NCBI GenBank assembly: GCA_016190895.1
Contig: JACPPR010000030.1
Span: 241 to 64,240 of the forward strand
Direction: 5' to 3'
Length of the DNA: 64,000 nt
Source of the DNA: Chloroflexota bacterium
Lineage (GTDB): Bacteria > Chloroflexota > Dehalococcoidia > Dehalococcoidales > UBA2162
Part shown: piece after piece, positions 41,504-54,300 of the stretch
Layout of the letters: each line of letters opens with the position of its first letter
Position numbering within the stretch: the stretch's first letter is position 1
The notes under the pieces: generated by a model
Database searches by the model: none
What the model was told of the DNA's origin: nothing
The model's input: only the letters and a program-made list of their open reading frames with translations
Program-made: the position numbers and the translations under genes

Positions 41504-43009
41504 TTGTTTATGAAAGACCGCTTATCGGACACGATGGAATCAGTGAAATCTACCTTGTCTCCGTTAGCGCCGCTGGTCAAGCGGCGCTGGTTCAAAGGAC
41601 TGGTAATGGCGTTCATTCTGTTCGGGGCTTTCTGGGGATTGCCGGCTATCGCCCGCGCCGCCGACCCGACCGGCACGGATACTTTTAACGCTAATCCCAA
41701 CAGCGCCGTCAATATGGCCTGGACGCTCATCACCGGTTTCCTGGTCTGGTTTATGCAGCTCGGTTTCGCCTTCCTGGGCGCCGGTCTGATTCGCTCCAAG
41801 AATCAGACTAACTACTGGACGAAGAGCTTTATGGATTTTTGTATCGCCTCGCTGGGCTTCTGGGCATTTGGGTTCGCCCTGATGTTCGGAGGCTCGAAGT
41901 TATTTCCCGGCCTAGATGACGGTAATGCGTGGATAGGTTTTTCCGGGTTTTTCCTGAGCGGCGGCGCCTATGATGTCTCGACGATTATGATGTGGTTCTT
42001 CCAGATGGTCTTTGCCGCTACCGCCACGACTATCGTTGCCGGCGCCGTGGCCGAAAGGATGAAGATTTCTGCCTACCTGGCTTACGCCTTTATTATCGGC
42101 GCTCTTATTTATCCTCTCTATGGTAAGTGGATATGGGGTGGCGGGTGGCTGGGCAGCTTAAGTATTGCTGGCGCTGCGGGCGCCAGAGACTTTGCTGGCT
42201 CCAGCGTCGTTCACATGGTCGGCGGATTGGCTGCCCTGATTGGTGCGGCTATGGTCGGACCGAGAATCGGCAGATTCAATAAGGATGGGACGCCCAATAA
42301 CATCAAAGGTCATAACCTGCCTTTTGTCGTTATCGGTACCTTCATCCTTTTCTTCGGCTGGTTCGGTTTTAATCCCGGCAGCACCCTGGCGGCTACCGAC
42401 CTGCGTATCTCGGTCATCGCTGTCAATACTTTCCTGGCCGGCGTTACCGGCGCGGTAGTAGCGCTCTACTGGGTTTTTGCCAAGACCGGCAAGATGGATA
42501 TCATCATGGGCTGCAACGGTAGTCTGGTCGGGCTGGTCGCCGTTACTGCGCCGGCGGCCTATATCGCTCCGTGGGCGGCAGTGCTCATCGGAGCGATAGC
42601 GGTTCCATTCATGTTTGCCACGAATCATGTTGTTGAGCGTGTGCTCAAGGTAGACGATGCCGTAGGCGCCGTCCCGGTGCACCTGGGTGGAGGGATGTGG
42701 GGCATGCTGGCAGTGGGTATTTTCGCCGATGGAACCTATCTAGGGGTCAAGGGACTCATTGCCGGTGAGATAGGCCAGCTAATCCTGCAACTAGTCGCCA
42801 TCGGGACTGTGTTTGTCTGGGTGGGCGTAACGGCCTTCCTTACCTTCTGGGCTATCAGAAAGAGCATCGGTCTGCGGGCTAGCCGTGAAGAAGAGCTGCA
42901 GGGGCTGGATATACCAGAGCACGGCATAGAAGCCTATCCGGCTGATTCCAGTATCACTTTAGGCGGAAGTACTCCTGTTGTTCCAAAGGCGCTCCCGGTT
43001 ACTCGTTAA
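41504..43009 (+). CDS. amt: Ammonium transporter (long form with signal-peptide-like N-terminus)
   Basis: AGSSVVHMVGG and FGWFGFNPGS. Start is TTG 41504 or ATG 41510, after AGGAGG. Confidence 0.92.
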   Translation: MFMKDRLSDTMESVKSTLSPLAPLVKRRWFKGLVMAFILFGAFWGLPAIARAADPTGTDTFNANPNSAVNMAWTLITGFLVWFMQLGFAFLGAGLIRSKNQTNYWTKSFMDFCIASLGFWAFGFALMFGGSKLFPGLDDGNAWIGFSGFFLSGGAYDVSTIMMWFFQMVFAATATTIVAGAVAERMKISAYLAYAFIIGALIYPLYGKWIWGGGWLGSLSIAGAAGARDFAGSSVVHMVGGLAALIGAAMVGPRIGRFNKDGTPNNIKGHNLPFVVIGTFILFFGWFGFNPGSTLAATDLRISVIAVNTFLAGVTGAVVALYWVFAKTGKMDIIMGCNGSLVGLVAVTAPAAYIAPWAAVLIGAIAVPFMFATNHVVERVLKVDDAVGAVPVHLGGGMWGMLAVGIFADGTYLGVKGLIAGEIGQLILQLVAIGTVFVWVGVTAFLTFWAIRKSIGLRASREEELQGLDIPEHGIEAYPADSSITLGGSTPVVPKALPVTR

Positions 43010-43022
43010 CATCAAGAAAGTC

Positions 43023-43055
43023 GGGTACCGCCCCGACATTATCGGGGCGGTACCC
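43023..43055 (+). repeat. Perfect 14-bp stem hairpin after amt1
   Basis: GGGTACCGCCCCGA-catta-TCGGGGCGGTACCC with no T-run. Confidence 0.6.
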
Positions 43056-43200
43056 ACGACCATTAAGCCGGATTCTCCTATCTCAAAGGAAAACAAATGC
43101 TTGAGTTAAGCCAGATTGCAGCAGTTGTTATTTTCGTGGCAATCCTCCATGCCCCGATTGCATCGGGGCACCACGAAGTATGAAAATCGGTCACGAGGAT

Positions 43201-43322
43201 GTCGTCATTCTGGCACGTTCACTTCGTTCAGTGTAAACTCCGGCCAGAATCCACTTCATCACACTCCACTGGATTCCAGCCGGAGTTTACCCCGTACTGC
43301 GATACGGGGCTGGAATGACGGA
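43201..43322. repeat. Composite repeat in the amt1-amt2 spacer
   Basis: Shares CACGTTC..TTCAGTGTAAACTCC with 13383-13410, plus GGATTCC...GGAATGAC ends. Confidence 0.6.
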
Positions 43323-43393
43323 CGGTGGCAGGCTTTTCGTGAGAATGTTTATTGCTATCGTCTACCTTTGGGTTCTGAGTTTTCAGTTTTCTT

Positions 43394-43431
43394 GTAACAT
43401 GTTTTTAACATATCCGTAATATGCTGGAAAC
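43394..43431 (+). promoter_or_regulatory. Four 11-bp phased boxes upstream of amt2
   Basis: GTAAC 43394, TTAAC 43405, GTAAT 43416, GAAAC 43427. Same order as the last four boxes of the amt1 site. Confidence 0.6.
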
Positions 43432-43471
43432 ACTAATGGCATAAGCTGGATGTAAAAGCAAGGAGGAACTT

Positions 43472-44704
43472 ATGCCCATTAATTCCGGTGATACTGCCTG
43501 GATACTGGTTTCGGCAGCCCTGGTGATGCTGATGACGCCGGGGCTGGCTCTTTTCTATGGGGGGATGGTGAGACGGAAGAACGTGCTCTCCACCATGATG
43601 ATGAGCTTCGCCATGCTCGGTCTGGTCGGCATTCTCTGGGTGCTCTATGGGTACAGTTTGAGCTTCGCTCCTGATATAGGTGGCATCATCGGCGGTTTTG
43701 ACTTCTTAGGACTCAAGAATGTCGGGCAGGACCCGTCATCGGTCTATGCCACCACCGTTCCTCACCTGGCCTTTATGATATATCAGGCGATGTTTGCCAT
43801 AATTACCGTCGCCTTATTTACGGGAGCCGTTGTCGACAGGATAAAATTCAGCGCATTGCTTGTCTTTTCGGCTCTGTGGTTGACCCTCATTTACGTTCCG
43901 GTGGCGCACTGGGTGTGGGGCGGCGGGTGGCTGGCGAAGCTGGGCGCCCTCGATTTTGCCGGCGGCACCGTGGTTCATATCAATGCCGGTGTCTCGGCGC
44001 TGGCTTTAGCCCTGCTCCTGGGACCCCGTAAGGGTTTTAAGGACAAGGAGCCTATGGAGGCCCACAATATTCCCTGGGTAATGCTGGGCGCGGGCTTGCT
44101 CTGGTTCGGTTGGTTCGGCTTTAACGCCGGCAGCGCTCTCACGGCTGGCGGGTTGGCTTCCAGCGCATTCGTTGCTACCAATACTGCTGCCGCCAGCGCC
44201 GCTTTCACCTGGATGCTGCTGAGCTGGATTTACCGACGTCCGACGGCTTTGGGAACGGTCACCGGCGCCGTTATCGGACTGGTGGCCATTACTCCTGCGG
44301 CCGGCTTTGTTGCACCGATAATGGGCATTCCCATAGGTATGGGGGCAGCCCTGGTCGGCTATTATGCCATGCTTGTCCGGGCAAAAACGCGGGTGGACGA
44401 TTCTCTGGATGTCCTGGCCTGCCATGGGATGGGGGGTATCTGGGGAGCTTTAGCGACCGGTATTTTTGCCAGCGTCGCTGTCAATTCAGCCGGAGCCGAC
44501 GGCCTGATTTTTGGTAATGCTATGCTGGTCGTCAAACAATTGGTTGCTATCGTCGCCGTTGGAGTCTTTGCCTTCGTCGGCACCTGGATTTTGGGCAAGC
44601 TCGTCGATATCACTATCGGGCTTCGAGTTAGTCCTACTGAAGAAAATCTGGGTCTTGATATATCCCAGCACGGTGAAAGAGCTTATGGAGGGCTTGCACG
44701 ATAA
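43472..44704 (+). CDS. amt: Ammonium transporter
   Basis: 410 aa with DFAGGTVVHINAG and FGWFGFNAGS. Confidence 0.94.
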   Translation: MPINSGDTAWILVSAALVMLMTPGLALFYGGMVRRKNVLSTMMMSFAMLGLVGILWVLYGYSLSFAPDIGGIIGGFDFLGLKNVGQDPSSVYATTVPHLAFMIYQAMFAIITVALFTGAVVDRIKFSALLVFSALWLTLIYVPVAHWVWGGGWLAKLGALDFAGGTVVHINAGVSALALALLLGPRKGFKDKEPMEAHNIPWVMLGAGLLWFGWFGFNAGSALTAGGLASSAFVATNTAAASAAFTWMLLSWIYRRPTALGTVTGAVIGLVAITPAAGFVAPIMGIPIGMGAALVGYYAMLVRAKTRVDDSLDVLACHGMGGIWGALATGIFASVAVNSAGADGLIFGNAMLVVKQLVAIVAVGVFAFVGTWILGKLVDITIGLRVSPTEENLGLDISQHGERAYGGLAR

Positions 44705-44736
44705 TCACCTGAATAACAAACAAAAATATGATTGGT

Positions 44737-44764
44737 GTAGGGGCGCAGCATGCTGCGCCCCTAC
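44737..44764. repeat. Same palindrome family
   Basis: GTAGGGGCGCAGCATGCTGCGCCCCTAC, between amt2 and amt3. Confidence 0.85.
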
Positions 44765-44805
44765 GGAACGGCGGCATGTCTGAAGGTCAAATATTTTATC
44801 TCTTT

Positions 44806-44821
44806 GTAACATGTTCGTAAC
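44806..44821 (+). promoter_or_regulatory. Two GTAAC(AT) direct repeats 11 bp apart upstream of amt3
   Basis: GTAAC at 44806 and 44817. Confidence 0.45.
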
Positions 44822-44871
44822 ATTAGTGGGCTAAACTGCATTTGTAGAATATACAAAGGGAAGGGGAAGTT

Positions 44872-46104
44872 ATGCCCATTAATTCCGGTGATACTGCCTG
44901 GATATTGGTCTCGGCAGCCCTGGTTATGCTCATGACTCCAGGGCTGGCTCTTTTCTACGGGGGGATGGTGCGGCGGAAGAACGTGCTTTCGACTATGATG
45001 ATGAGCTTTGCCATGCTGGGTTTGGTCGGCCTTCTCTGGGTGCTTTATGGCTATAGCCTGAGCTTCGCTCCTGATATGAGTGGCATCATCGGCGGTTTTG
45101 ACTTTATGGGTTTGCGGAACGTTGGACAGGAACCGTCCTCGGTTTATGCCACCACTGTTCCTCACCTGGCCTTTATGATATATCAGGCGATGTTCGCTAT
45201 CATCACTGTCGCCCTCTTCACCGGAGCCGTTGTGGACAGGATAAAGTTCGGCGCTCTGCTGGCGTTCTCAGCCTTGTGGCTGACATTCATCTATACGCCA
45301 GTGGCGCACTGGGTGTGGGGTGGTGGCTGGCTGGCAAAGCTGGGCGTTCTGGACTTCGCCGGCGGCGTGGTAGTTCACATCAATGCCGGTATGTCGGCTT
45401 TGGCTCTGGCTTTGCTGCTGGGTCCCCGCAAGGGTTTTGTTGAAAAGGAACCGATGGAAGCGCACGATATTCCTATGGTGATGCTGGGGGCAGGGTTGCT
45501 CTGGTTCGGCTGGTTCGGCTTCAATGCCGGCAGCGCCTTCACTGCCGGCGGGCTGGCCTCCAGCGCCTTTGTGGCTACGAATACGGCCGGGGCCGCCGCT
45601 GCCTTTACCTGGATGCTGCTTAGCTGGATATACCGCAGACCGACGGCTCTTGGGACAGTCACCGGGGCTGTTATCGGGCTGGCTGCGGTCACTCCGGCCG
45701 CCGGTTTTATCTCGCCGATAATGGGAATACCCATCGGCATCGGGGCGGCGCTGGTTGGGTACTATGCTATGCTTTTCCGGTCGAAATCACGTGTCGATGA
45801 TTCCCTGGATGTTATGGCTGCTCACGGTATGGGTGGTATCTGGGGAGTGCTGGCGACAGGCATATTTGCCAGTGTGGCTGTCAATGCGGCGGGAGCCGAT
45901 GGGCTTATCTTCGGAAACGGAGCGCAGTTACTGAAGCAGATGGCTGGCGTTGTTGCCGTCGGCGGCTTTTCTTTTATCGGGACGCTGATTTTGGGCAAGC
46001 TCGTCGATGCTACTATCGGTCTTAGAGTTACCCGCACTGAAGAGAATTTGGGCCTTGATATATCTCAGCATGGTGAAAGAGCTTATGGAGGGTTGGGAAG
46101 ATGA
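44872..46104 (+). CDS. amt: Ammonium transporter (tandem paralogue of the previous gene)
   Basis: 410 aa; by eye roughly 85-90 percent identical to amt2. Confidence 0.94.
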   Translation: MPINSGDTAWILVSAALVMLMTPGLALFYGGMVRRKNVLSTMMMSFAMLGLVGLLWVLYGYSLSFAPDMSGIIGGFDFMGLRNVGQEPSSVYATTVPHLAFMIYQAMFAIITVALFTGAVVDRIKFGALLAFSALWLTFIYTPVAHWVWGGGWLAKLGVLDFAGGVVVHINAGMSALALALLLGPRKGFVEKEPMEAHDIPMVMLGAGLLWFGWFGFNAGSAFTAGGLASSAFVATNTAGAAAAFTWMLLSWIYRRPTALGTVTGAVIGLAAVTPAAGFISPIMGIPIGIGAALVGYYAMLFRSKSRVDDSLDVMAAHGMGGIWGVLATGIFASVAVNAAGADGLIFGNGAQLLKQMAGVVAVGGFSFIGTLILGKLVDATIGLRVTRTEENLGLDISQHGERAYGGLGR

Positions 46105-46478
46105 AAAAAATAGAAGCTATCATTCGGGAAGAAAGGTTGGAACCTGTCAAACAGGCTCTGGAGGCCGGGGGTTACTTCGCTATGACTGTCACCGAGGTGA
46201 GCGGGCGTGGCGAGCAAAGGGGGCTTACCCTACCCTGGCGAGTCGGAGAGTATCGGGTCGATTTACTGCCTAAACTCAAACTTGAGATTGTCGTTCAGGA
46301 TAAAGAGGTCGATACGATAGTCAAAGCGATTATTGACAATGCCCGGACTGGTGAGATTGGCGATGGTAAGATATTTATCATACCAGTAGAAAACGCAATC
46401 CGCGTCCGCACCAACGAGGATGGCGACAAAGCAATCAATAAAGTAACAAACAATAAGGAGGAAGCAAAGACAAAATGA
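46101..46478 (+). CDS. glnK: PII nitrogen regulatory protein (GlnK-type, amt-linked)
   Basis: TVTEVSGRGEQRG T-loop with conserved Tyr (VGEY) and GDGKIFI. ATGA overlaps on both sides. Confidence 0.92.
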   Translation: MKKIEAIIREERLEPVKQALEAGGYFAMTVTEVSGRGEQRGLTLPWRVGEYRVDLLPKLKLEIVVQDKEVDTIVKAIIDNARTGEIGDGKIFIIPVENAIRVRTNEDGDKAINKVTNNKEEAKTK

Positions 46479-47890
46479 ATTCAACGGAAGTCATAAAGTT
46501 TGCTAAAGAGAAGGGCTGTCAGTTTGTCGACCTCAAGTTCATCGACCTGCCCGGCACCTGGCAGCATTATACTCTGCCTATCAGCGAGCTAAATCAGGAC
46601 CTCTTCGAGGAGGGTAACGGTTTTGACGGTTCTTCGATAAGGGGCTTTCGGCATATCAACGAAAGCGATATGTTGCTGATTCCCGACCCGGCGACGGCTA
46701 TCTGCGACCCGGTACTGGAAGTGCCGACATTGAGCCTGATTTGCGACGTGCGTGACCCGCTCACGGGCAAGGACTACGAGCGTGACCCGCGTAATATCGC
46801 CAAGAAGGCTGAAGCTTATCTGAAGACGACGGGCATTGCCGAGGGTAGTTACTGGGGTCCCGAACTGGAATTTTTCATATTCAACAGCATACGTTTCGAG
46901 CAAAACAGCCATGTCGGCTTCTATGCCATCGATTCCCAGGAGGGCATCTGGAACTCAGGTAATGGCGAGCACAGTAATCTGGGCTACCGCCCCCGTCACA
47001 AGGAAGGCTACTTCCCGGTGCCGCCTACCGACCAGACACACGATATCCGTACTAAAATCGCCCTCAAAATGATGGAGGGTGGTTTGAAGATTGAAAAGCA
47101 TCATCATGAGGTTGCCACTGCCGGACAGGCTGAGTTCGGTATCCGCTTCGATACCCTGACCAGGCAGGCGGATAATGTTATGCTCTACAAGTACATTGCT
47201 AAGAACGTGGCTGTGCAGAATGGCTTTACGGTGACATTCATGCCCAAGCCGCTTTTCCAGGACAATGGTTCAGGAATGCACGTACATCAGAGTCTCTTCA
47301 AGGGCGACAAGAACGTTTTCTACGATGCGAAGGGCTATGCCCTGCTTTCCCAGACGGCTAAACATTATATAGGCGGGCTGCTGGCACATTCACCGGCTTT
47401 GCTGGCGCTCTGCGCTCCGACCACCAACTCTTACCGCCGGCTCGTCCCCGGTTACGAGGCTCCCATCAATCTGGTTTACTCGGCAAGTAACCGCAGCGCC
47501 AGCATTCGTATTCCTCAGTACTCGACCAGTCCGAAGACCAAGAGAATCGAGTACCGCTGCCCGGATTCGAGCAGCAATCCGTATCTGGCCTTCGCCGCCA
47601 TGCTGCTGGCTGGCCTGGATGGCATCAAGAATAAGATTGACCCCGGCGAGCCTATCGACAAGGATATTTATGAGCTTGCGCCGGAAGAAAAGGCCAATAT
47701 CAAGTCAACGCCCGGCTCACTGCTCGAGGTACTGGATGCCCTCCGCGAAGACCATGATTTCCTTCTGAAGGGTGATGTCTTTACCGAGGACCTCATCGAG
47801 ACCTGGATAAACTACAAGAGAAAGAATGAGTATGACCAGGTCGCCCTGCGACCCCATCCCTACGAGTTCCATCTGTACTACGATATTTAG
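46475..47890 (+). CDS. glnA: Glutamine synthetase type I (471 aa)
   Basis: FDGSSIRGF, GSGMHVHQSLF, NSYRRLVPGYEAP. Confidence 0.95.
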   Translation: MNSTEVIKFAKEKGCQFVDLKFIDLPGTWQHYTLPISELNQDLFEEGNGFDGSSIRGFRHINESDMLLIPDPATAICDPVLEVPTLSLICDVRDPLTGKDYERDPRNIAKKAEAYLKTTGIAEGSYWGPELEFFIFNSIRFEQNSHVGFYAIDSQEGIWNSGNGEHSNLGYRPRHKEGYFPVPPTDQTHDIRTKIALKMMEGGLKIEKHHHEVATAGQAEFGIRFDTLTRQADNVMLYKYIAKNVAVQNGFTVTFMPKPLFQDNGSGMHVHQSLFKGDKNVFYDAKGYALLSQTAKHYIGGLLAHSPALLALCAPTTNSYRRLVPGYEAPINLVYSASNRSASIRIPQYSTSPKTKRIEYRCPDSSSNPYLAFAAMLLAGLDGIKNKIDPGEPIDKDIYELAPEEKANIKSTPGSLLEVLDALREDHDFLLKGDVFTEDLIETWINYKRKNEYDQVALRPHPYEFHLYYDI

Positions 47891-47917
47891 ATACGTCGGT
47901 TGACCTGCGTGGTCTGT

Positions 47918-47958
47918 GTATGGGCGACCCGATTCTATCGGGTCGCCCATACGTTTTT
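47918..47958 (+). terminator. Intrinsic terminator after glnA
   Basis: GTATGGGCGACCCGA-ttcta-TCGGGTCGCCCATAC followed by GTTTTT. Confidence 0.75.
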
Positions 47959-48244
47959 CGGCGAGGTGCGGGAGTTAATGATGGTGGGCTTGAGCTGCAG
48001 CGAAGCCTACCCTACTCGGCTGTGTTGACAGCGTCATAGTCCTTGTATGGCTATAATAAAGCATAATCCAGATACTCGCAAGCGGTGCTCGGGTAACACC
48101 ATAGTTAAATTGTGGGCCAACAATCGGGCAGAACGTTGAACGAGTGATTCAATCAACAGCATTAGTCTCCAGCGTGGCCGTTGCCACGGTCGCTCACTGT
48201 TGACAATAAACTCAGTTCCATAATATCATTCTTCAGTAGCGAAG

Positions 48245-48364
48245 ATGACAAACACCGTACAGATCTTAATTGACTATGAGAGAATAGCGTATTCGCTAAA
48301 CAGCGCCGACCTCGTTGTCGTTGTTAGCTGGGGCTTGCGTGCCTCAAACTCAACGACAAGCTAA
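48245..48364 (+). CDS. Candidate Val-run leader peptide of valS
   Basis: Read manually. 39 codons, MTNTVQILIDYERIAYSLNSADLVVVVSWGLRASNSTTS, with GTT GTC GTT GTT at 48314-25. Weak SD. Confidence 0.4.
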   Translation: MTNTVQILIDYERIAYSLNSADLVVVVSWGLRASNSTTS

Positions 48365-48392
48365 ACAAAGACAGAGAGTAAGAGACACGAAG

Positions 48393-48430
48393 CCCGGGAG
48401 AAAGGAAAGACTCCCGGGTTTTTGTTTTTG
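48393..48430 (+). terminator. Strong intrinsic terminator abutting the valS SD
   Basis: CCCGGGAG-N10-CTCCCGGG followed by TTTTTGTTTTTG; ends 38 nt before valS GTG 48469. Confidence 0.8.
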
Positions 48431-48468
48431 CAGAGATGCAAATGAGGCGAGAAGAAGAGGAGGCCAAA

Positions 48469-50913
48469 GTGGGCAACCTATCGAAGCGATACATACCGAT
48501 TGAGAGCGAGCGCACGTGGCGGAAGAATTGGGAGGAAAAGCAGGTTTACCGATTCCAGTCGGCAAGTCGGAGCCCTGTCTATTCTATTGATACTCCTCCG
48601 CCGACTGTGTCAGGCGACCTGCACATGGGGCACTGCTATTCGTACTGCCAGGCCGATTTTTACGCTCGCTTCCATCGAATGAAAGGCTGCAACGTTTTCT
48701 ATCCGATGGGCTGGGATGATAACGGACTTCCGACCGAACGCTTGGTAGAAAAGCGGTTGGGAATCAGGCCGGAGAACGTCGGCCCTGAGGTATTCATCCT
48801 TGAAATCCTCAAAACCAGCCAGGAGCTTGAACACAAGTACAAGAATCTTTGGCAGCGGCTGGGCCTGAGCGTCGACTGGAACCATACGTACAGCACTATA
48901 AGCCCCGAATCGCGCAAAATAGCACAATACTCTTTCATCGACCTCTTCCGGAAAGGGCTAGTTTACCAGGCTTCCTCACCCACCATCTGGTGTCCGGTCT
49001 GCAGGACGGCTATCGCTCAGGCCGAGGTGTCGGACATGCAGCGTAGCTCGCAGTTTGTGACAGTTACTTTCAAACTGGACGATGGTCAACCATTACTTAT
49101 CGCCACCACTCGTCCGGAACTCTTGCCCGCCTGCGTGGCGATATTCGTGAATCCTTTAGACGAGCGCCATCGGCACCTGATAGGGCACAAAGCAATTACC
49201 CCAGTTTTTGGCAAGGAGGTGCCGATATTGGCTGACAAGAAGGCCGACCCCGAAAAAGGCACCGGTATTGTCATGTGCTGCACTTTCGGCGATGCCACCG
49301 ATGTCAAATGGCAACGCGAGCGCCATCTTCCGATAGTCGCCGCAATTGACACCGATGGCAGGCTTGGCAATCAGGCGGGTGCGCTCGTCGGACTAAACGT
49401 CAGTGAAGCACGTCAAGAGGTCATCAAGCTGCTTGCGGACAAAGGTCTCATTACGGACATCAGCCCAACCATTCAAACTGTGAGCGTACATGAAAGATGC
49501 GATACTCCTATCGAATACATTACCACCGAGCAATGGTTCGTAAGGGTATTGGACCAGAAGCAAAGACTCCTGGATGCCGGTAGAGCCATCAACTGGTATC
49601 CGAGCTACATGCTTGCCAGGTACGAGGATTGGGTACAGAATCTGGAGTGGGATTGGTGTATTTCCCGGCAGCGGTATCATGGCGTCCCATTCCCTCTCTG
49701 GTATTGTGCGAGTTGCGGGAGTGTAACACTAGCAGATTCTGGCGATCTTCCGGTCGACCCTCGCATCCAGCCGCCGCCCGCACCCTGCAAATGCGGTCGC
49801 CGGAAGTGGATTCCGGAGGAAAGCGTGATGGATACGTGGGCGACTTCGTCTCTCACTCCACAAATAGCAGGCCGATGGCTTGAACCGGACGGACTCTTCA
49901 ACCAGGTATTCCCGATGTCTCTACGTCCCCAGGCGCATGACATCATTCGGACTTGGACATTCTACACGATCGTCAAGTCGATTTATCATCTGGATACCGT
50001 GCCGTGGAAGGACGTCGCCGTCTCTGGGCACGGACTTTCTCCGGAAGGTAATAAGGTAAGTAAGTCCAAGGATAATAGCGTCGTGGATCCCTTAAGAGTG
50101 CTGGACAAGTACTCTGCCGACGCCGTACGGTATTGGGCGGCCAGCGCCAAACTGGGCGAGAACGCCCTCATCAGCGAAGAAAGGATTGCTGCCGGTCAGA
50201 AGCTGGTGAACAAGCTTTGGAGCGTTTCTGTATTCTCCTACCAGTTCCTGAACGGCTATCGGATTCCGGCGTCTTCGCCAGAGCTCGTGCCAACTGACAA
50301 GTGGGTGCTTTCCCAGCTTCAACGCCTCATCGTAGAGACAACGCAGTCTTTTGCCGACTATGACCACGCCGCAGCCAAAACCAAGGTGGAAGCGTTCTTC
50401 TGGGATATTCTCGCCGACAACTATTTGGAGATGGTCAAGGCCCGATTATACGATGAAGCACAGGGGCTATCCGGAAAACAATCGGCACAATATGCCCTCT
50501 ATAAGGTTTTGTCAGCCCTGAACAAGATGTTCGCGCCATTCCTTCCTTACATCACCGAGGAGATATTCCAATCCCTATTCACCGGTGCCGCCTCTCGTGC
50601 TTCGATTCATACGGAGGCGTGGCCAACCGAAAATAAGGAACTGATTGATGAATCCGCCGAACGTCTGGGTGAGGCTATGGTGGAAATTGCTGTCAACGTT
50701 CGGCGGTACAAATCTCAACAACACCTGGCAATGGGTGCCAGGCTAGACAGGGTCACCATATCCACGGAGGAAGCCGACCTGATAGAACAGCTGAAAAGCT
50801 GCCTCGCTGATATCAGAAGTGTTACCAGAGCAGAAACAGTCGAATTACGACTCGATACTGCGCGGTGCTCGGAAAGCCATGGTAAAGTCGACGTGGCTGT
50901 CGGCTTGCACTAA
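48469..50913 (+). CDS. valS: Valine--tRNA ligase (archaeal-like type, no C-terminal coiled coil)
   Basis: TPPPTVSGDLHMGHCYSY, GWDDNGLPTE, DWCISRQRY, KVSKSKDN. Start set at GTG 48469 after SD GAGGAGG; the track starts at ATG 48436. Confidence 0.88.
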   Translation: MGNLSKRYIPIESERTWRKNWEEKQVYRFQSASRSPVYSIDTPPPTVSGDLHMGHCYSYCQADFYARFHRMKGCNVFYPMGWDDNGLPTERLVEKRLGIRPENVGPEVFILEILKTSQELEHKYKNLWQRLGLSVDWNHTYSTISPESRKIAQYSFIDLFRKGLVYQASSPTIWCPVCRTAIAQAEVSDMQRSSQFVTVTFKLDDGQPLLIATTRPELLPACVAIFVNPLDERHRHLIGHKAITPVFGKEVPILADKKADPEKGTGIVMCCTFGDATDVKWQRERHLPIVAAIDTDGRLGNQAGALVGLNVSEARQEVIKLLADKGLITDISPTIQTVSVHERCDTPIEYITTEQWFVRVLDQKQRLLDAGRAINWYPSYMLARYEDWVQNLEWDWCISRQRYHGVPFPLWYCASCGSVTLADSGDLPVDPRIQPPPAPCKCGRRKWIPEESVMDTWATSSLTPQIAGRWLEPDGLFNQVFPMSLRPQAHDIIRTWTFYTIVKSIYHLDTVPWKDVAVSGHGLSPEGNKVSKSKDNSVVDPLRVLDKYSADAVRYWAASAKLGENALISEERIAAGQKLVNKLWSVSVFSYQFLNGYRIPASSPELVPTDKWVLSQLQRLIVETTQSFADYDHAAAKTKVEAFFWDILADNYLEMVKARLYDEAQGLSGKQSAQYALYKVLSALNKMFAPFLPYITEEIFQSLFTGAASRASIHTEAWPTENKELIDESAERLGEAMVEIAVNVRRYKSQQHLAMGARLDRVTISTEEADLIEQLKSCLADIRSVTRAETVELRLDTARCSESHGKVDVAVGLH

Positions 50914-50980
50914 GAGACTCGATGTCGGTAGGGGGGACAGCACAACCTTACTGCAAACATGTCTGCCGAGAGAACAGTAG

Positions 50981-51050
50981 GCTGACACTGGCTCTAACTT
51001 GTGGTATGATAACGTTGAATCATCCATGGGTTAGGAGGGCCAGTGTCAGC
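50981..51050 (+). promoter_or_regulatory. 12-bp perfect stem enclosing the SD and covering the start codon of glnA2
   Basis: GCTGACACTGGC (50981-92) is the exact reverse complement of GCCAGTGTCAGC (51039-50). GTG start at 51043; SD AGGAGG at 51033-38. Confidence 0.5.
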
Positions 51051-52386
51051 TAAAGATAGGGCTGAATCCTGCGGTTATGTCCTGAAAATGGCCAAGGAGC
51101 ATGATGTCAAGTTCATCAGGCTCTGGTTCACCGATATCCTTGGGGTCCTGAAAAGCTTTGCCATTACTGTAGAAGAGCTTGAAGAGGCTCTGGCCGAGGG
51201 GAAGGGGTTCGATGGCTCTTCTATCGAGGGCTTCGCCCGCATCGATGAAAGCGATATGGTGGCCCTGCCCGACCCGGATACCTTCCGTCTGATTCCCTGG
51301 CGGCCACGGGAACACCACGCCGTCGCCCGTATGTTCTGCGACGTCCTTAAACCGGGCGGGCAGATTTTCGAGGGCGACCCGAGATATGTCCTCAAGAGAA
51401 ATCTGAAACGGGCTGCCGAATTGGGCTATACCTACTACGTCGGCCCCGAGTTGGAGTTTTTCTATTTCAAGAGCGCCAATGCCACTGAGACTCTGGATGC
51501 CGGCGGCTATTTCGACCTGATGCCGTTGGATGTCGCCACCGACCTGAGGCGAGATACGGTTCTCACCCTCGAAGAGATGGGCATCGGCGTCGAGTATTCC
51601 CATCACGAAGTGGCGCCCAGCCAGCATGAAATAGATATGAGGTATACCGATGCCCTGACTATGGCTGATAATGTCATGACCTACCGCCTGGTCGTGAAGC
51701 AAATCGCTCTGCAGCACGGCGTCTACGCCACCTTTATGCCCAAGCCGGTTTTCGGTATCAATGGCAGCGGTATGCACGTTCACCAGTCTCTCTTTAAGGG
51801 TGGCAAGAATGCCTTCTTCGATAGGAAAGACAAATATTACCTGTCTAAATTAGCCAAGGGCTACATTGCTGGCTTGCTGAAACATGCCCCCGAAATCACC
51901 TCTGTTACCAGTCAGTGGGTCAATTCTTACAAGCGGCTGGTGCCTGGCTATGAGGCGCCGGTCTATCTCTCCTGGGCGCGGCGCAACCGTTCTGATTTGA
52001 TTCGAGTTCCCGAGTATAGGCCGGGCCGGGAAAACGCCACGCGCATCGAGTACCGCTCGCCGGACCCGGCTTGCAACCCCTACCTCACCTTCAGTGTTAT
52101 GCTGGCTGCCGGGCTGGATGGGATTGAAAAGGGATTGGAACCGCCTGAGCCGGTCGAAGAAAACGTCTACGAGATGTCCGAAGAGGAAAGAAAAGCGAGA
52201 GGAATAGTGACTTTACCCTCTAGCCTTGCTGAGGCTATCGAGCTGACCGAGAAAAGTGAGTTGGTGAGAAAAGCCCTCGGCGACCATGTTTTCAATGCTT
52301 TTATTGCCAATAAAAAGATAGAGTGGGATAACTACCGCACTCAGGTGACCGAATACGAAATTAAGAGGTACCTGCCTATATTGTAA
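51043..52386 (+). CDS. glnA: Glutamine synthetase type I (447 aa, alpha-like)
   Basis: FDGSSIEGF, GSGMHVHQSLF, NSYKRLVPGYEAP; GTG start. Confidence 0.93.
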   Translation: MSAKDRAESCGYVLKMAKEHDVKFIRLWFTDILGVLKSFAITVEELEEALAEGKGFDGSSIEGFARIDESDMVALPDPDTFRLIPWRPREHHAVARMFCDVLKPGGQIFEGDPRYVLKRNLKRAAELGYTYYVGPELEFFYFKSANATETLDAGGYFDLMPLDVATDLRRDTVLTLEEMGIGVEYSHHEVAPSQHEIDMRYTDALTMADNVMTYRLVVKQIALQHGVYATFMPKPVFGINGSGMHVHQSLFKGGKNAFFDRKDKYYLSKLAKGYIAGLLKHAPEITSVTSQWVNSYKRLVPGYEAPVYLSWARRNRSDLIRVPEYRPGRENATRIEYRSPDPACNPYLTFSVMLAAGLDGIEKGLEPPEPVEENVYEMSEEERKARGIVTLPSSLAEAIELTEKSELVRKALGDHVFNAFIANKKIEWDNYRTQVTEYEIKRYLPIL

Positions 52387-52560
52387 ATCCGAAATTCTAG
52401 TATCGAAATCCGAAACAAATCCAAATTACAAAATCCAAATGCCAAATAAAGCCTAAATGCTTGAATGCCAAGTTCACAAAGGGCGTGGTCATTTTAGCTT
52501 TGATATTTGGCATTTATTTGAACTTTGAGCTTTGGATTTTGAGTTTCGCCGGAGGTCATT
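52387..52560. repeat. AT-rich word repeat, long imperfect palindrome
   Basis: CAAAATCCAAATGCCAAATA ... TATTTGGCATTT ... TTTGGATTTTG. Confidence 0.7.
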
Positions 52561-52563
52561 AAT

Positions 52564-54300
52564 ATGCACCGTCTACGGGTTGGTATGGCTCAGATGAACG
52601 CTACCGTGGGCGATTTTGCCGGTAACACACGGAAGATTCTGGACATTATCTCTCAAGCCAGGGCTTTAGAGGTGGACATGCTCACTTTTCCTGAGCTTGC
52701 CATCTGCGGCTACCCGCCGGAAGACCTGCTTTTCAAGCCCAAGTTTATCGAGGAAAACCTGCGTTTCCTGAACAAAGTCATAGAAGCTTCGGCCGGAATT
52801 ACTCTTGTCGTCGGCTTCGTCGATGCCAAAGAGGATATCTACAACGCAGCGGCAATCGTCCATGATGGCAAGCTGGTCAGCGCTTATCACAAGATTTACC
52901 TGCCTAACTACGGCGTCTTCGATGAAGACCGTTACTTCCGGGCCGGCGCCAGCAGCGAATGCCCGGTGTACACGATCGCCGGAGTGGGCATCGGCATTAA
53001 TATTTGTGAAGATATATGGTACGAAGCAGGGCCGACCTCTATCCAGGCCTATGCCGGGGCCGAGGTAATCGTTAATATCAGCGCCTCGCCGTTTCATTAC
53101 GGCAAAGGAAACGCCCGGGAGAGAATGCTAGCCACCCGCGCCTCGGACAATGTGTCGGTCGTTGTTTTCAACAACCTGGTTGGCGGCCAGGACGAGCTGG
53201 TTTTCGATGGCAACAGCCTTATCCTGGACGAGAAAGGGCAGGTCATTGCCCGCGGCAAGCAGTTCGAGGAAGACCTGATTATAGCCGACCTTGAGATTGA
53301 GTCCGTCTTCAGGACTCGTTTGCATGACCCGCGGTGGCGGAAAGAGAAGCTGCTCGCGGAGCAGAGAGGCGGCGGCATCAGGGTGATGGTATCGGAAGCG
53401 CCCGTCTCGCTCACCAAACCGCCGCTACCAGCGAGACAGGTTATAACCAAACCTCTTCTCGGCGAGGTCTATGACGCCCTCGTGCTCGGCACCCGCGATT
53501 ACGTCCGCAAGAACGGCTTTAAGAAGGTGCTGATGGGACTCTCCGGGGGCATAGATTCCAGTCTGGTGGCAACCATCGCCACCGATGCCCTGGGCAAGGA
53601 CAATGTGGTCGGCATCTCGATGCCTTCCCGGTATTCCTCGGAGGGCAGCGTTACCGATGCCGAGCTTCTGAGCAAGAACCTGGGTATCAAGCTGAAGACC
53701 ATACCCATCGAGGAAATCTTCCAGGCTTACCTGAATACGCTGATGCCTCAATTCGAGGGGAAAGAACCGGACGTTACCGAGGAGAATATCCAGGCCCGTA
53801 TCCGGGGCAATATCCTGATGGCGCTGTCCAACAAGTTCGGCTGGCTGGTGCTGGCTACGGGGAACAAAAGCGAGATGGCTACCGGCTTCACCACCCTTTA
53901 TGGCGATATGGCAGGCGGTTTTTCCGTCATCAAGGATGTCCCAAAAACAATGGGCTACGAGCTTGCCAAGTACCGAAACTCGGTGGCTGGTTATGAGCTG
54001 ATACCCTCGGCTATTATCGGCAAAGCTCCTTCTCCGGAGTTGAAGCCCGAGCAGAAGACTACCGATACTTTGCCGCCTTACCCCCGGCTCGACCCCATCC
54101 TGATGGCATATGTGGAAGAAGACAAGAGCGTCGAGCAGATAATCGCCGCCGGGCATGATGAAGCAACTGTTAGACGCGCGGCGCAGTTGGTTGACAGGAG
54201 CGAGTACAAGCGTCGCCAGGCGCCCCCCGGTGTTAAGATAACCCCCCGGGCCTTCGGCCGGGATAGAAGACTGCCGATTACCAACCGGTTTAAGGGATAA
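52564..54300 (+). CDS. nadE: Glutamine-dependent NAD+ synthetase
   Basis: N-terminal CN-hydrolase (FPELAICGYPPEDL, INICEDIW) plus PP-loop GLSGGIDSS. Confidence 0.93.
   Translation: MHRLRVGMAQMNATVGDFAGNTRKILDIISQARALEVDMLTFPELAICGYPPEDLLFKPKFIEENLRFLNKVIEASAGITLVVGFVDAKEDIYNAAAIVHDGKLVSAYHKIYLPNYGVFDEDRYFRAGASSECPVYTIAGVGIGINICEDIWYEAGPTSIQAYAGAEVIVNISASPFHYGKGNARERMLATRASDNVSVVVFNNLVGGQDELVFDGNSLILDEKGQVIARGKQFEEDLIIADLEIESVFRTRLHDPRWRKEKLLAEQRGGGIRVMVSEAPVSLTKPPLPARQVITKPLLGEVYDALVLGTRDYVRKNGFKKVLMGLSGGIDSSLVATIATDALGKDNVVGISMPSRYSSEGSVTDAELLSKNLGIKLKTIPIEEIFQAYLNTLMPQFEGKEPDVTEENIQARIRGNILMALSNKFGWLVLATGNKSEMATGFTTLYGDMAGGFSVIKDVPKTMGYELAKYRNSVAGYELIPSAIIGKAPSPELKPEQKTTDTLPPYPRLDPILMAYVEEDKSVEQIIAAGHDEATVRRAAQLVDRSEYKRRQAPPGVKITPRAFGRDRRLPITNRFKG

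Follow-up and report, generated by a model that had tools for sequence, protein, structure and literature searches.

Attenuation of pheST has been verified experimentally; the valS attenuator described here is predicted from sequence comparison and folding. In enterobacteria, the leader peptides of ilvBN (ivbL) and ilvGMEDA (ilvL) contain runs of Val codons and sense the charging of Val-tRNA by ribosome stalling. The pheST attenuator is cited as the model for attenuators of aminoacyl-tRNA synthetase genes (PMC1262725), and classical attenuators have been predicted upstream of leuS and trpS in Streptomyces, while in Bacillus a His leader precedes hisS paralogues (PMC1262725; PMC2965389). Neither Rfam 15 nor the literature open to searching gave a description of a leader-peptide attenuator for valS, or for any gene in Chloroflexota. 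The mechanism that we propose is a textbook one.

Here we analyzed the region upstream of valS in a 64-kb stretch of DNA (the window, which refers to the whole stretch at its full length) from an uncultured Chloroflexota metagenome-assembled genome (MAG). Our analysis indicates that the valS leader is likely a ribosome-mediated (leader-peptide) transcription attenuator, which would couple valS transcription to the supply of Val-tRNA(Val). An earlier reading of the sequence (the original prediction) had proposed such a Val-codon leader-peptide attenuator, and this proposal is strongly supported by conserved elements, complementarity and in-silico folding.

Gene context and promoter of the valS leader

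The leader is located between glnA and valS, with the following features:

46475-47890, plus strand: glnA (TIGR00653, 658 bits)
47920-47958, plus strand: intrinsic terminator of glnA, a 13-bp hairpin (ATGGGCGACCCGA/TCGGGTCGCCCAT) followed by a T-run
48200-48229, plus strand: leader promoter, with -35 TTGACA at 48200-05, an 18-nt spacer and -10 TATCAT at 48224-29
48457-63, plus strand: SD of valS (GAGGAGG), with the GTG start at 48469-71
48469-50913, plus strand: valS, valine--tRNA ligase of 814 aa (NF009687, 1042 bits against a cut-off of 738)
48315-48503 (plus strand), 48324-48515 (minus strand) and 48350-48565 (minus strand): mechanical ORFs reaching valS, which nothing suggests are genes

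Direct reading of the sequence placed the glnA hairpin at 47920-47950 and its T-run at 47954-58, and found every coordinate given in the original prediction to be correct. Since the glnA terminator forms the upstream boundary, valS needs its own promoter. The promoter hexamers noted originally carried the caveat of a 15-nt spacer, which is resolved by our promoter scan: at 48200-48229 it detects TTGACA-N18-TATCAT, in agreement with the consensus at 11 of 12 positions. The predicted transcription start site (TSS) lies at ~48235-37, which would give a transcribed leader of ~233 nt (about 48236-48468) and leave 47959-48199 as spacer, in place of the 510-nt leader proposed earlier. The gap had also been described as free of ORFs of at least 60 codons, which needs qualification, as the three mechanical ORFs (62-71 codons) overlap its last 150 nt and enter valS. 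The 814-aa product of valS is 100% identical to the NCBI-annotated ValS (P0001), and its N-terminus aligns with MDNLPKRY of the homologues. The GTG at 48469 lies 38 nt past the T-run of the strong terminator reported in the original prediction, which we read at the same position.

Search for known RNA families

Rfam gave no match at the gathering threshold in the whole 64-kb window, and at E<=10 the region 47850-48520 gave only a spurious miRNA match, within the hairpin of the glnA terminator. The check for a T-box or other riboswitch that had been suggested for this leader was thus run with Rfam, and neither a known riboswitch nor a T-box was found. The T-box family (RF00230) was rejected for the window leader, with no match at the gathering threshold or at E<=10, while both controls were positive: T-boxes were detected upstream of valS in Halothermothrix (L002, 140.7 bits) and in an Anaerolineae MAG (L001, 58.1 bits), so the T-box test works. 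The Rfam amino-acid leader families (Trp, His, Leu, Thr, Phe and others) were likewise rejected, with 0 matches at the gathering threshold in the window, L023, L024 and L001. Inspection by eye also revealed a T-box-like sequence upstream of valS in a Caldilineaceae MAG (L093).

A leader ORF with a run of valine codons

The 39-codon sORF holding GTT GTC GTT GTT is present as originally described:

48245-48364, plus strand: leader sORF of 39 codons, MTNTVQILIDYERIAYSLNSADLVVVVSWGLRASNSTTS followed by a stop (ATG at 48245, TAA at 48362-64)
48314-25, plus strand: Val run GTT GTC GTT GTT (four Val codons), of which 48315-23 is also the 5' strand of the off-state stem

The SD of this sORF is weak (GAAG), in agreement with the caveat raised before, and its predicted 5' UTR is only ~9 nt. 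The Val run is the sole stretch of at least four GTN codons on both strands of the whole 64-kb window. A run of at least four GTN codons arose in 0.5% of dinucleotide shuffles of 47959-48468 (P=0.005), in keeping with the original estimate of ~1%.

To place the leader among its relatives, we compared the valS leaders carrying the core, namely those of the window, L023-L027, L030, L060, L067, L077, L084, L090, L091 and L094, in which ValS is 60-77% identical to that of the window. The Dehalococcoidales genome CP070800 is also among the carriers of the element. All 14 share a layout of sORF with Val run, blocks B and B', and terminator, arranged in the order TTGACA-N18-TAnnnT promoter, sORF, 16-nt block B, B', terminator, SD and valS. 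The TTGACA precedes block B by 120-136 nt in 12 of the 13 leaders compared, with a TAnnnT 18 nt later in each. A sORF of 34-39 codons occupies the equivalent position in 14/14, preceded by AGGAGA 5-6 nt upstream of the ATG in relatives including L026, L030 and L094; the SD is canonical in L025, L026, L030 and L094. Testing the relatives for loss of the Val run gave the opposite result, as the 13 other leaders all keep 3-5 consecutive Val codons (14/14 with the window). The codons of the run differ only at their third positions (GTT 38, GTC 21, GTA 3), the gap between run and block B is 4-7 nt in the leaders measured, and the sORFs as a whole are rich in Val. The peptide is not conserved over its N-terminal two thirds, and the sequence 5' of the run is variable. 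Block B is followed by the stop codon at 15-16 nt in all 13 valS leaders. The ~110-nt non-coding core is 67-75% identical to that of the window, as compared with 62-66% for the first 600 nt of valS; by this measure of sequence identity, the non-coding core is conserved as strongly as the gene.

A close relative, L092 (ValS ~61% identical), has no such leader. Upstream gaps of 472 and 311 nt precede the genes of P0002 (70%) and P0007, respectively. A scan of a genome collection with ValS gave only distant relatives (<=53% identity).

Database searches identified further members of this group. Five additional sORFs called in public data carry VVVV or VVVVV; a profile search of 5.8 billion proteins gave 7 sORFs, all of Val or GNAT type, and a search of 1.84 billion representatives gave two more of these types (P0129 and P0131). 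Neither protein search, in data where small ORFs are rarely called, gave sister leaders with runs of other amino acids (Ile, Leu and others).

As promoter, sORF and terminator would make up a complete unit of ~195 nt, and terminated attenuator RNAs can act in trans in other bacteria (rnTrpL; PMC6614838), the locus could also be read as a separate small gene or sRNA unit unrelated to valS, with valS transcribed from an unrecognised promoter past the terminator. However, the unit is always directly upstream of valS even though the flanking genes differ between contigs, and the interval in which such a promoter would have to fit is short, with only 12-51 nt from the U-tract to the first long-ORF start across the leaders (38 nt to the annotated GTG of the window). 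The promoter scan finds no promoter-like site in this interval of the window (48431-48468). The lack of conservation in the N-terminal two thirds of the peptide also argues against a separate gene, and we consider this explanation extremely improbable.

Predicted mutually exclusive RNA structures

Downstream of the Val run, the attenuator proposed here would involve four RNA elements:

48331-48345, plus strand: block B GGGCTTGCGTGCCTC, 5' strand of the antiterminator, forming a small local hairpin in the off state
48351-48359, plus strand: A' CAACGACAA, pairing over 9 bp with the Val codons at 48315-23 (TTGTCGTTG) and closing the off-state hairpin around B
48382-48395, plus strand: block B' GAGACACGAAGCCC, 3' strand of the antiterminator
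48391-48430, plus strand: intrinsic terminator, AGCCCGGGAG (48391-400), 10-nt loop, CTCCCGGGTT (48411-20) and U-tract TTTTTGTTTTTG (48419-30)

The core arms of the terminator are CCCGGGAG (48393-400) and CTCCCGGG (48411-18). Folded alone, it has a free energy of -17.6 kcal/mol, and 96.6% of its cells are paired across 13 leaders. Block B has the consensus GGGCTTGG(Y)(R)TG(Y)CTC, near-invariant in all 22 leaders. Read on the minus strand, 48380-95 fits the pattern of block B, and no copies of block B exist in the 64-kb window beyond B and the reverse complement of B'. The last 5 nt of B' (AGCCC, 48391-95) form the base of the terminator 5' arm.

The antiterminator was originally drawn as GGGCTTGCGT (48331-40) with ACGAAGCCC (48387-95). 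The pairing and its overlap with the terminator arm stand, and its length is to be corrected from 9 to 13 bp (6 + 4 + 3, including a bulge and a C/A mismatch; -19.7 kcal/mol in the window). The B:B' duplex is kept in 19/19 leaders (-19 to -28 kcal/mol), and in alignment A2 93.4% of its cells are paired, versus 20-45% when the 3' partners are slid. Compensatory changes occur at two B:B' positions (GCCUC/GAGGC in L026, and AUG.../...CAU in L027 where others have G-C), each in one sequence only and in a number that 62 of 500 shuffles also reach. Statistical covariation in B:B' and the terminator is not significant, there being too little variation in these two almost invariant elements.

The stem between Val codons and A' is more variable. 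The hairpin 48312-48362 folded alone reaches -21.5 kcal/mol, and the RNAalifold consensus of 13 leaders contains the helix (columns 13-18 with 51-56) in a 6-bp, G-U-rich version, within an off state composed of this stem, the local B hairpin and the terminator. The Val-codon stem noted originally is strong in the window and one sub-clade (the L027 clade), whereas the other leaders retain it only by means of G-U pairs. A strong stem common to all leaders was rejected: in the duplex test it is no better than shuffles in L023, L024, L025, L026, L030 and L060, with A' weak or absent in the first five of these.

These pairings bear on whether the leader could be an RNA-only switch (a riboswitch or a protein-dependent antiterminator), in which the sORF is incidental and the GUN repeats are kept only as a helix strand. 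Such a switch would account for the pairing of Val codons with A' in the window and the L027 clade, for the conservation of B at the nucleotide level and for the weak sORF SD in the window. It does not sit well with the persistence of the Val run in the five leaders with weak or absent A', nor with a run that varies only at third positions, always in frame within an ORF that starts with ATG and is conserved in length; a canonical AGGAG SD precedes several of these ORFs. Moreover, the run is missing where the downstream gene is not valS, no Rfam family matches, and there is no conserved, structured, aptamer-like domain, the sequence 5' of the run being variable. We therefore judge an RNA-only switch very unlikely.

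Model for attenuation of valS

Compared with the parts of an attenuator, the window has a sORF near the promoter (starting ~9 nt past the predicted TSS, with a weak SD), a cognate codon run (four Val codons at 48314-25), a terminator between sORF and gene (48391-48430), an antiterminator sharing AGCCC with the terminator 5' arm, and a stall geometry that fits in silico.

In our model, transcription would start at ~48236 from the promoter at 48200-48229, and the sORF would be translated while RNA polymerase advances. When Val-tRNA(Val) is plentiful, the ribosome would pass the Val codons and B (48331-45) and reach the stop at 48362, and B would be covered, or kept apart from B' (48382-95), by the ribosome; as a result the terminator would form and transcription would end 38 nt before valS. 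When Val-tRNA(Val) is scarce, the ribosome would stall with its A site on Val codons at the start of the run (48314-22), its leading edge ~12 nt downstream and ending just before B. This stall would melt the Val-codon:A' stem, which otherwise locks B in a hairpin, and the freed B could pair with B' (13 bp), removing the base of the terminator stem so that the polymerase would read through into valS. According to this model, the switch most likely raises expression of valyl-tRNA synthetase when charged tRNA-Val is low. Overall, valS would be under feedback control by tRNA-Val charging, the same function that a T-box performs 5' of this gene in more distant relatives.

The original prediction could not derive a consistent stalling model; folding with an in-silico ribosome footprint shows that a geometrically consistent one exists. 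In these calculations, the ribosome footprint was removed and the terminator 3' arm was taken as not yet made. B:B' has a probability of 1.0 when Val1 or Val2 occupies the A site, and most leaders reach this value with Val3 too; the probability falls at Val4 and is 0 with the ribosome over B or at the stop codon. In free RNA of the window, the terminator state beats the antiterminator by 3.5 kcal/mol, a margin of only 0.5-1.2 kcal/mol when Val1 or Val2 is in the A site. The stall flips the equilibrium outright in L027, L067 and L077. The full-length equilibrium remains with the terminator in the window, L023, L024, L025 and L030 even with a stalled ribosome, so that regulation in these five leaders must be kinetic. 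In RNA that carries no ribosome and ends before the terminator 3' arm, the equilibrium likewise favours the antiterminator, and an untranslated leader may therefore read through.

The same core upstream of other genes

We scanned metagenomes with a pattern consisting of block B and AGCCCGGG; as this pattern leaves the Val codons aside, the scan tests the Val run independently. Of the 62 matches, ~40 were discarded as unrelated, having no terminator, Val run or valS; they correspond to human-gut contigs sharing one 54-nt match and to GC-rich coding DNA. Among the terminator-bearing matches, a Val run that stops 4-7 nt short of B is present in 5/5 of those with valS downstream, and a Val run is present in 0/10 of those without valS downstream (GNAT and asd leaders). 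The same RNA core is thus found 5' of GNAT acetyltransferase and asd genes without the Val run, and in the sequences analyzed the run is strictly tied to valS among core-bearing leaders. The leader-bearing GNATs resemble AAC(6')/SpeG, below the cut-off. The GNAT encoded after valS in L090 is only 27% identical to them, and hence no orthology is claimed.

Block B encodes ...AW(R/C/H)VS... in most leaders, and in the resulting AWxVS motif A, W and S are invariant across 17 peptides, with V nearly invariant. The window reads block B in a different frame, giving SWGLRAS instead of RAWRVS, with nucleotides and pairing kept. Direct reading gives a distance of 16 nt from block B to the stop in the GNAT leaders. 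The simple attenuation model fails to explain the invariance of B before unrelated genes and the fixed distance from B to the stop.

An alternative reading is a general ribosome-stalling sensor, acting through the nascent peptide or translation speed (block B plus a fixed stop distance) and responding to any translation stress, such as antibiotics or inhibitors of aminoacyl-tRNA synthetases, with the Val run merely tuning it for valS. The presence of the core before GNAT and asd genes without the Val run, the invariant A, W and S, and the agreement in B-to-stop distance (15-16 nt in 13 valS leaders, 16 nt in GNAT leaders) speak for such a sensor. Yet the changed frame of the window abandons the peptide while keeping nucleotides and pairing, L069 has an in-frame TAG before B, and synonymous sites within B show no variation (always GCT and GTC), a sign of constraint at the RNA level; the strict association of Val run and valS is a further argument against it. 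On balance, a general sensor appears improbable as an account of the valS leader, and attenuation by Val codons remains the reading that we prefer. The GNAT-linked copies themselves might fit drug-responsive ribosome-stalling leaders of the erm/cat type; in comparison with such leaders, AWxVS is conserved in most of our leaders and frame-shifted in the window, where the gene is valS and not a resistance gene.

More tentatively, and with considerable doubt, the valS leader could represent one copy of an attenuator cassette that is portable in Dehalococcoidia-like Chloroflexota and retargeted through the codons 5' of B, in which case the invariance of B would reflect, in addition to antiterminator pairing, a further function such as a signal from the nascent peptide, a pause or a trans-factor. 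The proposed parts of this cassette, before valS, GNAT and asd, would be the invariant 16-nt B, a stop at near-constant distance, the B' strand and a CCCGGG terminator. The core common to these leaders offers a route to study how attenuators are copied and re-targeted.

Comparison with known systems

An attenuator would explain the long unannotated gap before valS, and small ORFs called 'hypothetical protein' by some pipelines (P0121, P0127) would be leader peptides. It would also imply functional transcription-translation coupling in Chloroflexota. The distribution of leaders suggests a regulatory replacement, with valS under a T-box in the Anaerolineae MAG, Halothermothrix and apparently the Caldilineaceae MAG, and under a Val sORF in the clade of the window; both regulators would read tRNA-Val charging.

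The T-box of valS (RF00230) resembles the window leader in gene, position, terminator/antiterminator output and the signal of tRNA-Val charging. Nevertheless, in a T-box the RNA itself senses uncharged tRNA, by means of a specifier codon and the T-box bulge, and translation is not involved, whereas the window has a Val-codon sORF that is predicted to be translated. The ivbL and ilvL leaders differ in that they belong to Proteobacteria, control branched-chain amino-acid biosynthesis and contain Leu and Ile codons alongside those for Val, and they have no sequence or Rfam similarity to the window leader. The leaders of Streptomyces and Bacillus share with it a leader peptide and terminator 5' of an aminoacyl-tRNA synthetase gene, outside Proteobacteria and found by comparative genomics; Streptomyces leuS and trpS and Bacillus hisS nevertheless represent different synthetases, phyla and sequences. 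Finally, pheST of E. coli and other gamma-proteobacteria is likewise a synthetase operon under a leader peptide (pheM) that is encoded close to the promoter and rich in the amino acid of the synthetase, and its antiterminator and terminator hairpins exclude each other; the window leader differs from it in using Val rather than Phe, in phylum and sequence, and in having no Rfam match to Phe_leader.

The valS leader and its genomic context

The window comes from a Chloroflexota MAG. The gene downstream of the putative Val-codon attenuator encodes an 814 amino acid ValS that is 100% identical to an NCBI-annotated protein and was identified by NF009687 (1042 bits). It is embedded in a nitrogen-assimilation cluster (window 41504-54300), which includes:

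41504-43009, 43472-44704 and 44872-46104: three ammonium transporter (amt) genes, upstream of valS
46101-46478: P-II gene, upstream of valS
46475-47890: glnA, upstream of valS
51043-52386: second glnA (type I), downstream of valS
52564-54300: glutamine-dependent NAD+ synthase, downstream of valS

Direct reading of 47700-48700 recovered, position for position, every element that the original prediction had listed between glnA and valS. One minor correction concerns its statement that no ORF of 60 codons or more occurs here: the final 150 nt are shared by three mechanical ORFs (62-71 codons) that run on into valS. The leader elements, including a promoter identified by a promoter scan, are:

47920-47950 (+): glnA terminator hairpin, then a T-run
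48200-48229 (+): promoter TTGACA-N18-TATCAT (11/12 positions matched)
48245-48364 (+): leader sORF, 39 codons
48314-25 (+): Val run GTT GTC GTT GTT, inside the sORF
48315-23 and 48351-59 (+): Val-codon stem, TTGTCGTTG complementary to CAACGACAA
48331-40 and 48387-95 (+): candidate antiterminator as originally predicted, GGGCTTGCGT complementary to ACGAAGCCC
48393-48430 (+): intrinsic terminator, CCCGGGAG-N10-CTCCCGGG then TTTTTGTTTTTG
48469 (+): valS start GTG, with the SD GAGGAGG (48457-63) ahead

Since glnA has its own terminator, a valS promoter is required within the gap; the scan found none between the leader terminator and valS. Nowhere else in the 64-kb window, on either strand, are there four or more consecutive GTN codons, and the supposed rarity of this Val run by chance was borne out: runs of at least that length appeared in 0.5% of dinucleotide-shuffled versions of the region.

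Between the glnA terminator and the valS promoter lies a 240-nt spacer (47959-48199). It contains a TTGACA (48025) and a TATAAT (48052) separated by 21 nt and, shortly ahead of the -35 element of the valS promoter, a small GTGGC/GCCAC hairpin (48175-88). Our tools flagged nothing on the + strand of this spacer, and this upstream context is found in no relative.

Conservation of the Val run among valS leaders

The nearest homologues of the window's ValS are only 60-70% identical, and upstream DNA of relatives was obtained through exact-protein look-ups. Five valS loci (L023-L027) share this architecture, in the order promoter, Val-run sORF, block B (the 5' antiterminator strand), B' (the 3' strand) with terminator, and valS. 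Their block B is near-invariant (GGGCTTGG(Y)(R)TG(Y)CTC), and the complementary B' (GAGAC...AAGCCC) is fused to a CCCGGG terminator. The architecture is also present in two Dehalococcoidales MAGs, one a complete genome (L090 and L091), and absent from the upstream DNA of L092.

We also scanned metagenomes with a pattern composed only of block B and AGCCCGGG, and thus blind to Val codons. Among the terminator-bearing matches, five more loci precede valS, all five with 4-5 Val codons in a run ending 4-7 nt before B; the other 10 do not precede valS, and none has a Val run. A leader-peptide profile search showed that public data already contain called sORFs of this kind (P0121-P0127, P0129 and P0131). 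One of them, P0125, lies 110 nt upstream of valS (809 aa) on four contigs, and constitutes independent evidence, since its terminator (AGCCCGAGAG...) cannot be matched by the scan pattern. The expected conservation of the Val run was found in all 13 other valS leaders whose DNA carries the core.

Two measures are notable as indicators of selection: variation inside the Val runs is confined to third codon positions (GTT 38, GTC 21, GTA 3, GTG 0), and identity to the window is 67-75% in the non-coding core versus 62-66% in the first 600 nt of valS. GTT and GTC account for 59 of the 62 Val-run codons in the window and 13 relatives, with no GTG, while 26% of the Val codons of the window's genes are GTG. 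This bias may reflect the sensing of one tRNA-Val isoacceptor or a constraint from RNA pairing.

Three further features were observed at these loci. At L023:2960-2985, L025:1399-1420 and L026:1953-1975, an additional small hairpin (CCCTT...AAGGG or CCTTTC...GAAGG) separates the U-tract from the valS SD; the window lacks it. In the Dehalococcoidales MAG L090, an AAC(6')-like GNAT gene (L090:3974-4555) follows valS by 38 nt, which would place it under the Val attenuator; its identity to the GNATs that have their own leader core is just 27%. Finally, one and the same 54-nt match to the pattern, followed by AGCCCGGGGATCTCTTTTATGACG, recurs in L028, L029, L031 and about 20 further loci from the human gut, with neither terminator nor valS; it is presumably coding sequence conserved in a common gut organism.

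The leader core upstream of other genes

This core also precedes asd and genes for small GNAT acetyltransferases (179-187 aa), the latter at seven distinct loci (plus duplicate contigs L062 and L056):

L032:6894-7024, L047:1795-1924 (-), L048:1705-1835, L069:3432-3565, L081:9122-9254 (-), L087:8520-8650 (-) and L050:123-253: GNAT leaders with TTGACA promoter, sORF, B, B' and CCGGG terminator
L064:10092-10222 (-): leader of asd (aspartate-semialdehyde dehydrogenase; NF006416, 458 bits)

These GNATs are generic, scoring under every NCBIfam cut-off. Their leader peptides end in ...Y(W/R)AWCVSNF(R/K)ET, and the main-group sORFs have 2-3 Cys codons within 6 codons. The asd leader peptide, MVLNWNITTNLTMSRRTKRLRRAWCVSSSGEIRT up to its stop, has no obvious single-codon run. 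Val runs are missing from the GNAT and asd leaders alike, which makes these a natural control for the run specific to valS.

The sORF stop follows the end of B by 15-16 nt in 13/13 valS leaders tested (window: 48331-48364); direct reading gives 16 nt for the GNAT leaders and 22 nt for that of asd. The footprint of a terminating ribosome would just fill the B-to-B' gap. A simple attenuation model leaves the invariance of B and the fixed B-stop distance unexplained. An essential peptide-level role of the B-encoded AWxVS motif seems unlikely from the sequences, because the window reads B in a different frame (SWGLRAS) and the sORF of the GNAT leader L069:3432-3565 is cut short by an in-frame TAG 36 nt ahead of B. 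B, B' and the terminator are intact in this leader, and the TAG may be a sequencing error, mark a decaying copy, or be a sign that B acts as RNA.

Antiterminator, terminator and Val-codon stem

The B:B' bipartite helix is possible in 19/19 leaders tested (-19 to -28 kcal/mol). The complementarity of the predicted antiterminator strands (48331-40 with 48387-95) was confirmed in the window, and its extent was revised to a three-part helix joining 48331-45 to 48382-95: GGGCUU:AAGCCC (48331-36 with 48390-95), CGUG:CACG (48338-41 with 48386-89) and CUC:GAG (48343-45 with 48382-84). Its only irregularities are one bulged G and one C/A mismatch, and its energy is -19.7 kcal/mol as a duplex and -22.7 kcal/mol for the segment folded alone.

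On an alignment of 13 leaders (A2), 93.4% of B:B' cells are paired, versus 20-45% with the 3' partners slid; in the terminator, pairing reaches 96.6% and the sequence hardly varies. Compensatory changes in B:B' occur at two positions only, in one sequence each, so statistical covariation is weak. The non-valS leaders have other B' sequences (GGAGCAUCAAGCCC, GAGCGCACCGAGCCC, GCACAGCAAGCCC), all of which retain complementarity to the invariant B. For A2, RNAalifold gives the off state as its consensus: the Val-codon stem, a local B hairpin and the terminator, with the Val codons paired to a downstream (A/G)(A/G)CGAC element. Both the window (hairpin -21.5 kcal/mol) and the L027-type clade have the predicted 9-bp Val-codon stem; in other leaders it consists mostly of G-U pairs and does not outperform shuffles.

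Search for T-boxes and other known leaders

The original prediction named a significant match to a known riboswitch or T-box as grounds for refutation; Rfam 15 gave no match at the gathering threshold over the whole window. At E<=10, the sole match in 47850-48520 was a spurious miRNA on the glnA terminator hairpin. The search is valid as a test, since it found T-boxes ahead of valS both in Halothermothrix (L002; 140.7 bits) and in an Anaerolineae MAG (L001:3697-3955; 58.1 bits, E 1.5e-10). The latter falls well short of the gathering score of 93 and goes unreported in default mode. By eye, a Caldilineaceae valS leader (L093) has a T-box-like GGTGGTACCAC sequence and a terminator. T-boxes of Chloroflexota may be under-annotated. 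The Halothermothrix contig also carries a SAM-I riboswitch (L002:18-137, 88 bits) about 3.5 kb upstream of valS, unrelated to the attenuator.

Predicted mechanism

Stalling was modeled by removing the RNA under and upstream of the ribosome, with a footprint reaching 12 nt past the first A-site nucleotide; the terminator 3' arm was left out because it is made last. The antiterminator probability was 1.0 with Val1 or Val2 in the A site (in most leaders also Val3), fell at Val4, and was 0 with the ribosome over B or at the stop codon. For the window, free RNA favours the terminator state by 3.5 kcal/mol, and this advantage shrinks to 0.5-1.2 kcal/mol when the A site holds Val1 or Val2; a stalled ribosome reverses the full-length equilibrium in L027, L067 and L077. 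Ribosome-free RNA without the terminator 3' arm likewise favours the antiterminator at equilibrium, which in this model could provide basal expression of an essential gene.

According to the proposed mechanism, when charged tRNA-Val is plentiful the ribosome would cover or pass B, the terminator would form and no valS mRNA would be made. When charged tRNA-Val is low, the ribosome would stop on the Val codons, melting the locking stem and allowing B to pair with B', so that the base of the terminator stem would be lost and polymerase would read through. We infer the transcription start, sORF translation, coupling and kinetic control, as well as the steric separation of B from B' by a ribosome at the stop codon. 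Overall, sequence comparison makes a classical attenuation mechanism a well supported prediction.

Comparison with known systems

Among aaRS genes, pheST of gamma-proteobacteria is an established case of leader-peptide attenuation. Such control has also been predicted for Streptomyces leuS and trpS (PMC1262725) and for Bacillus hisS paralogues, and switches between T-box and leader peptide are documented for one same gene (PMC2965389). In Dehalococcoides, the T-boxes reported by early surveys belong to ileS and trp genes and not to valS (PMC2494555). In the literature searched, we found no description of leader peptides for valS or in Chloroflexota. The valS attenuator would thus be a new, well supported case of an already known form of aaRS regulation: like pheST, an aaRS gene under leader-peptide attenuation, here predicted from comparative genomics.
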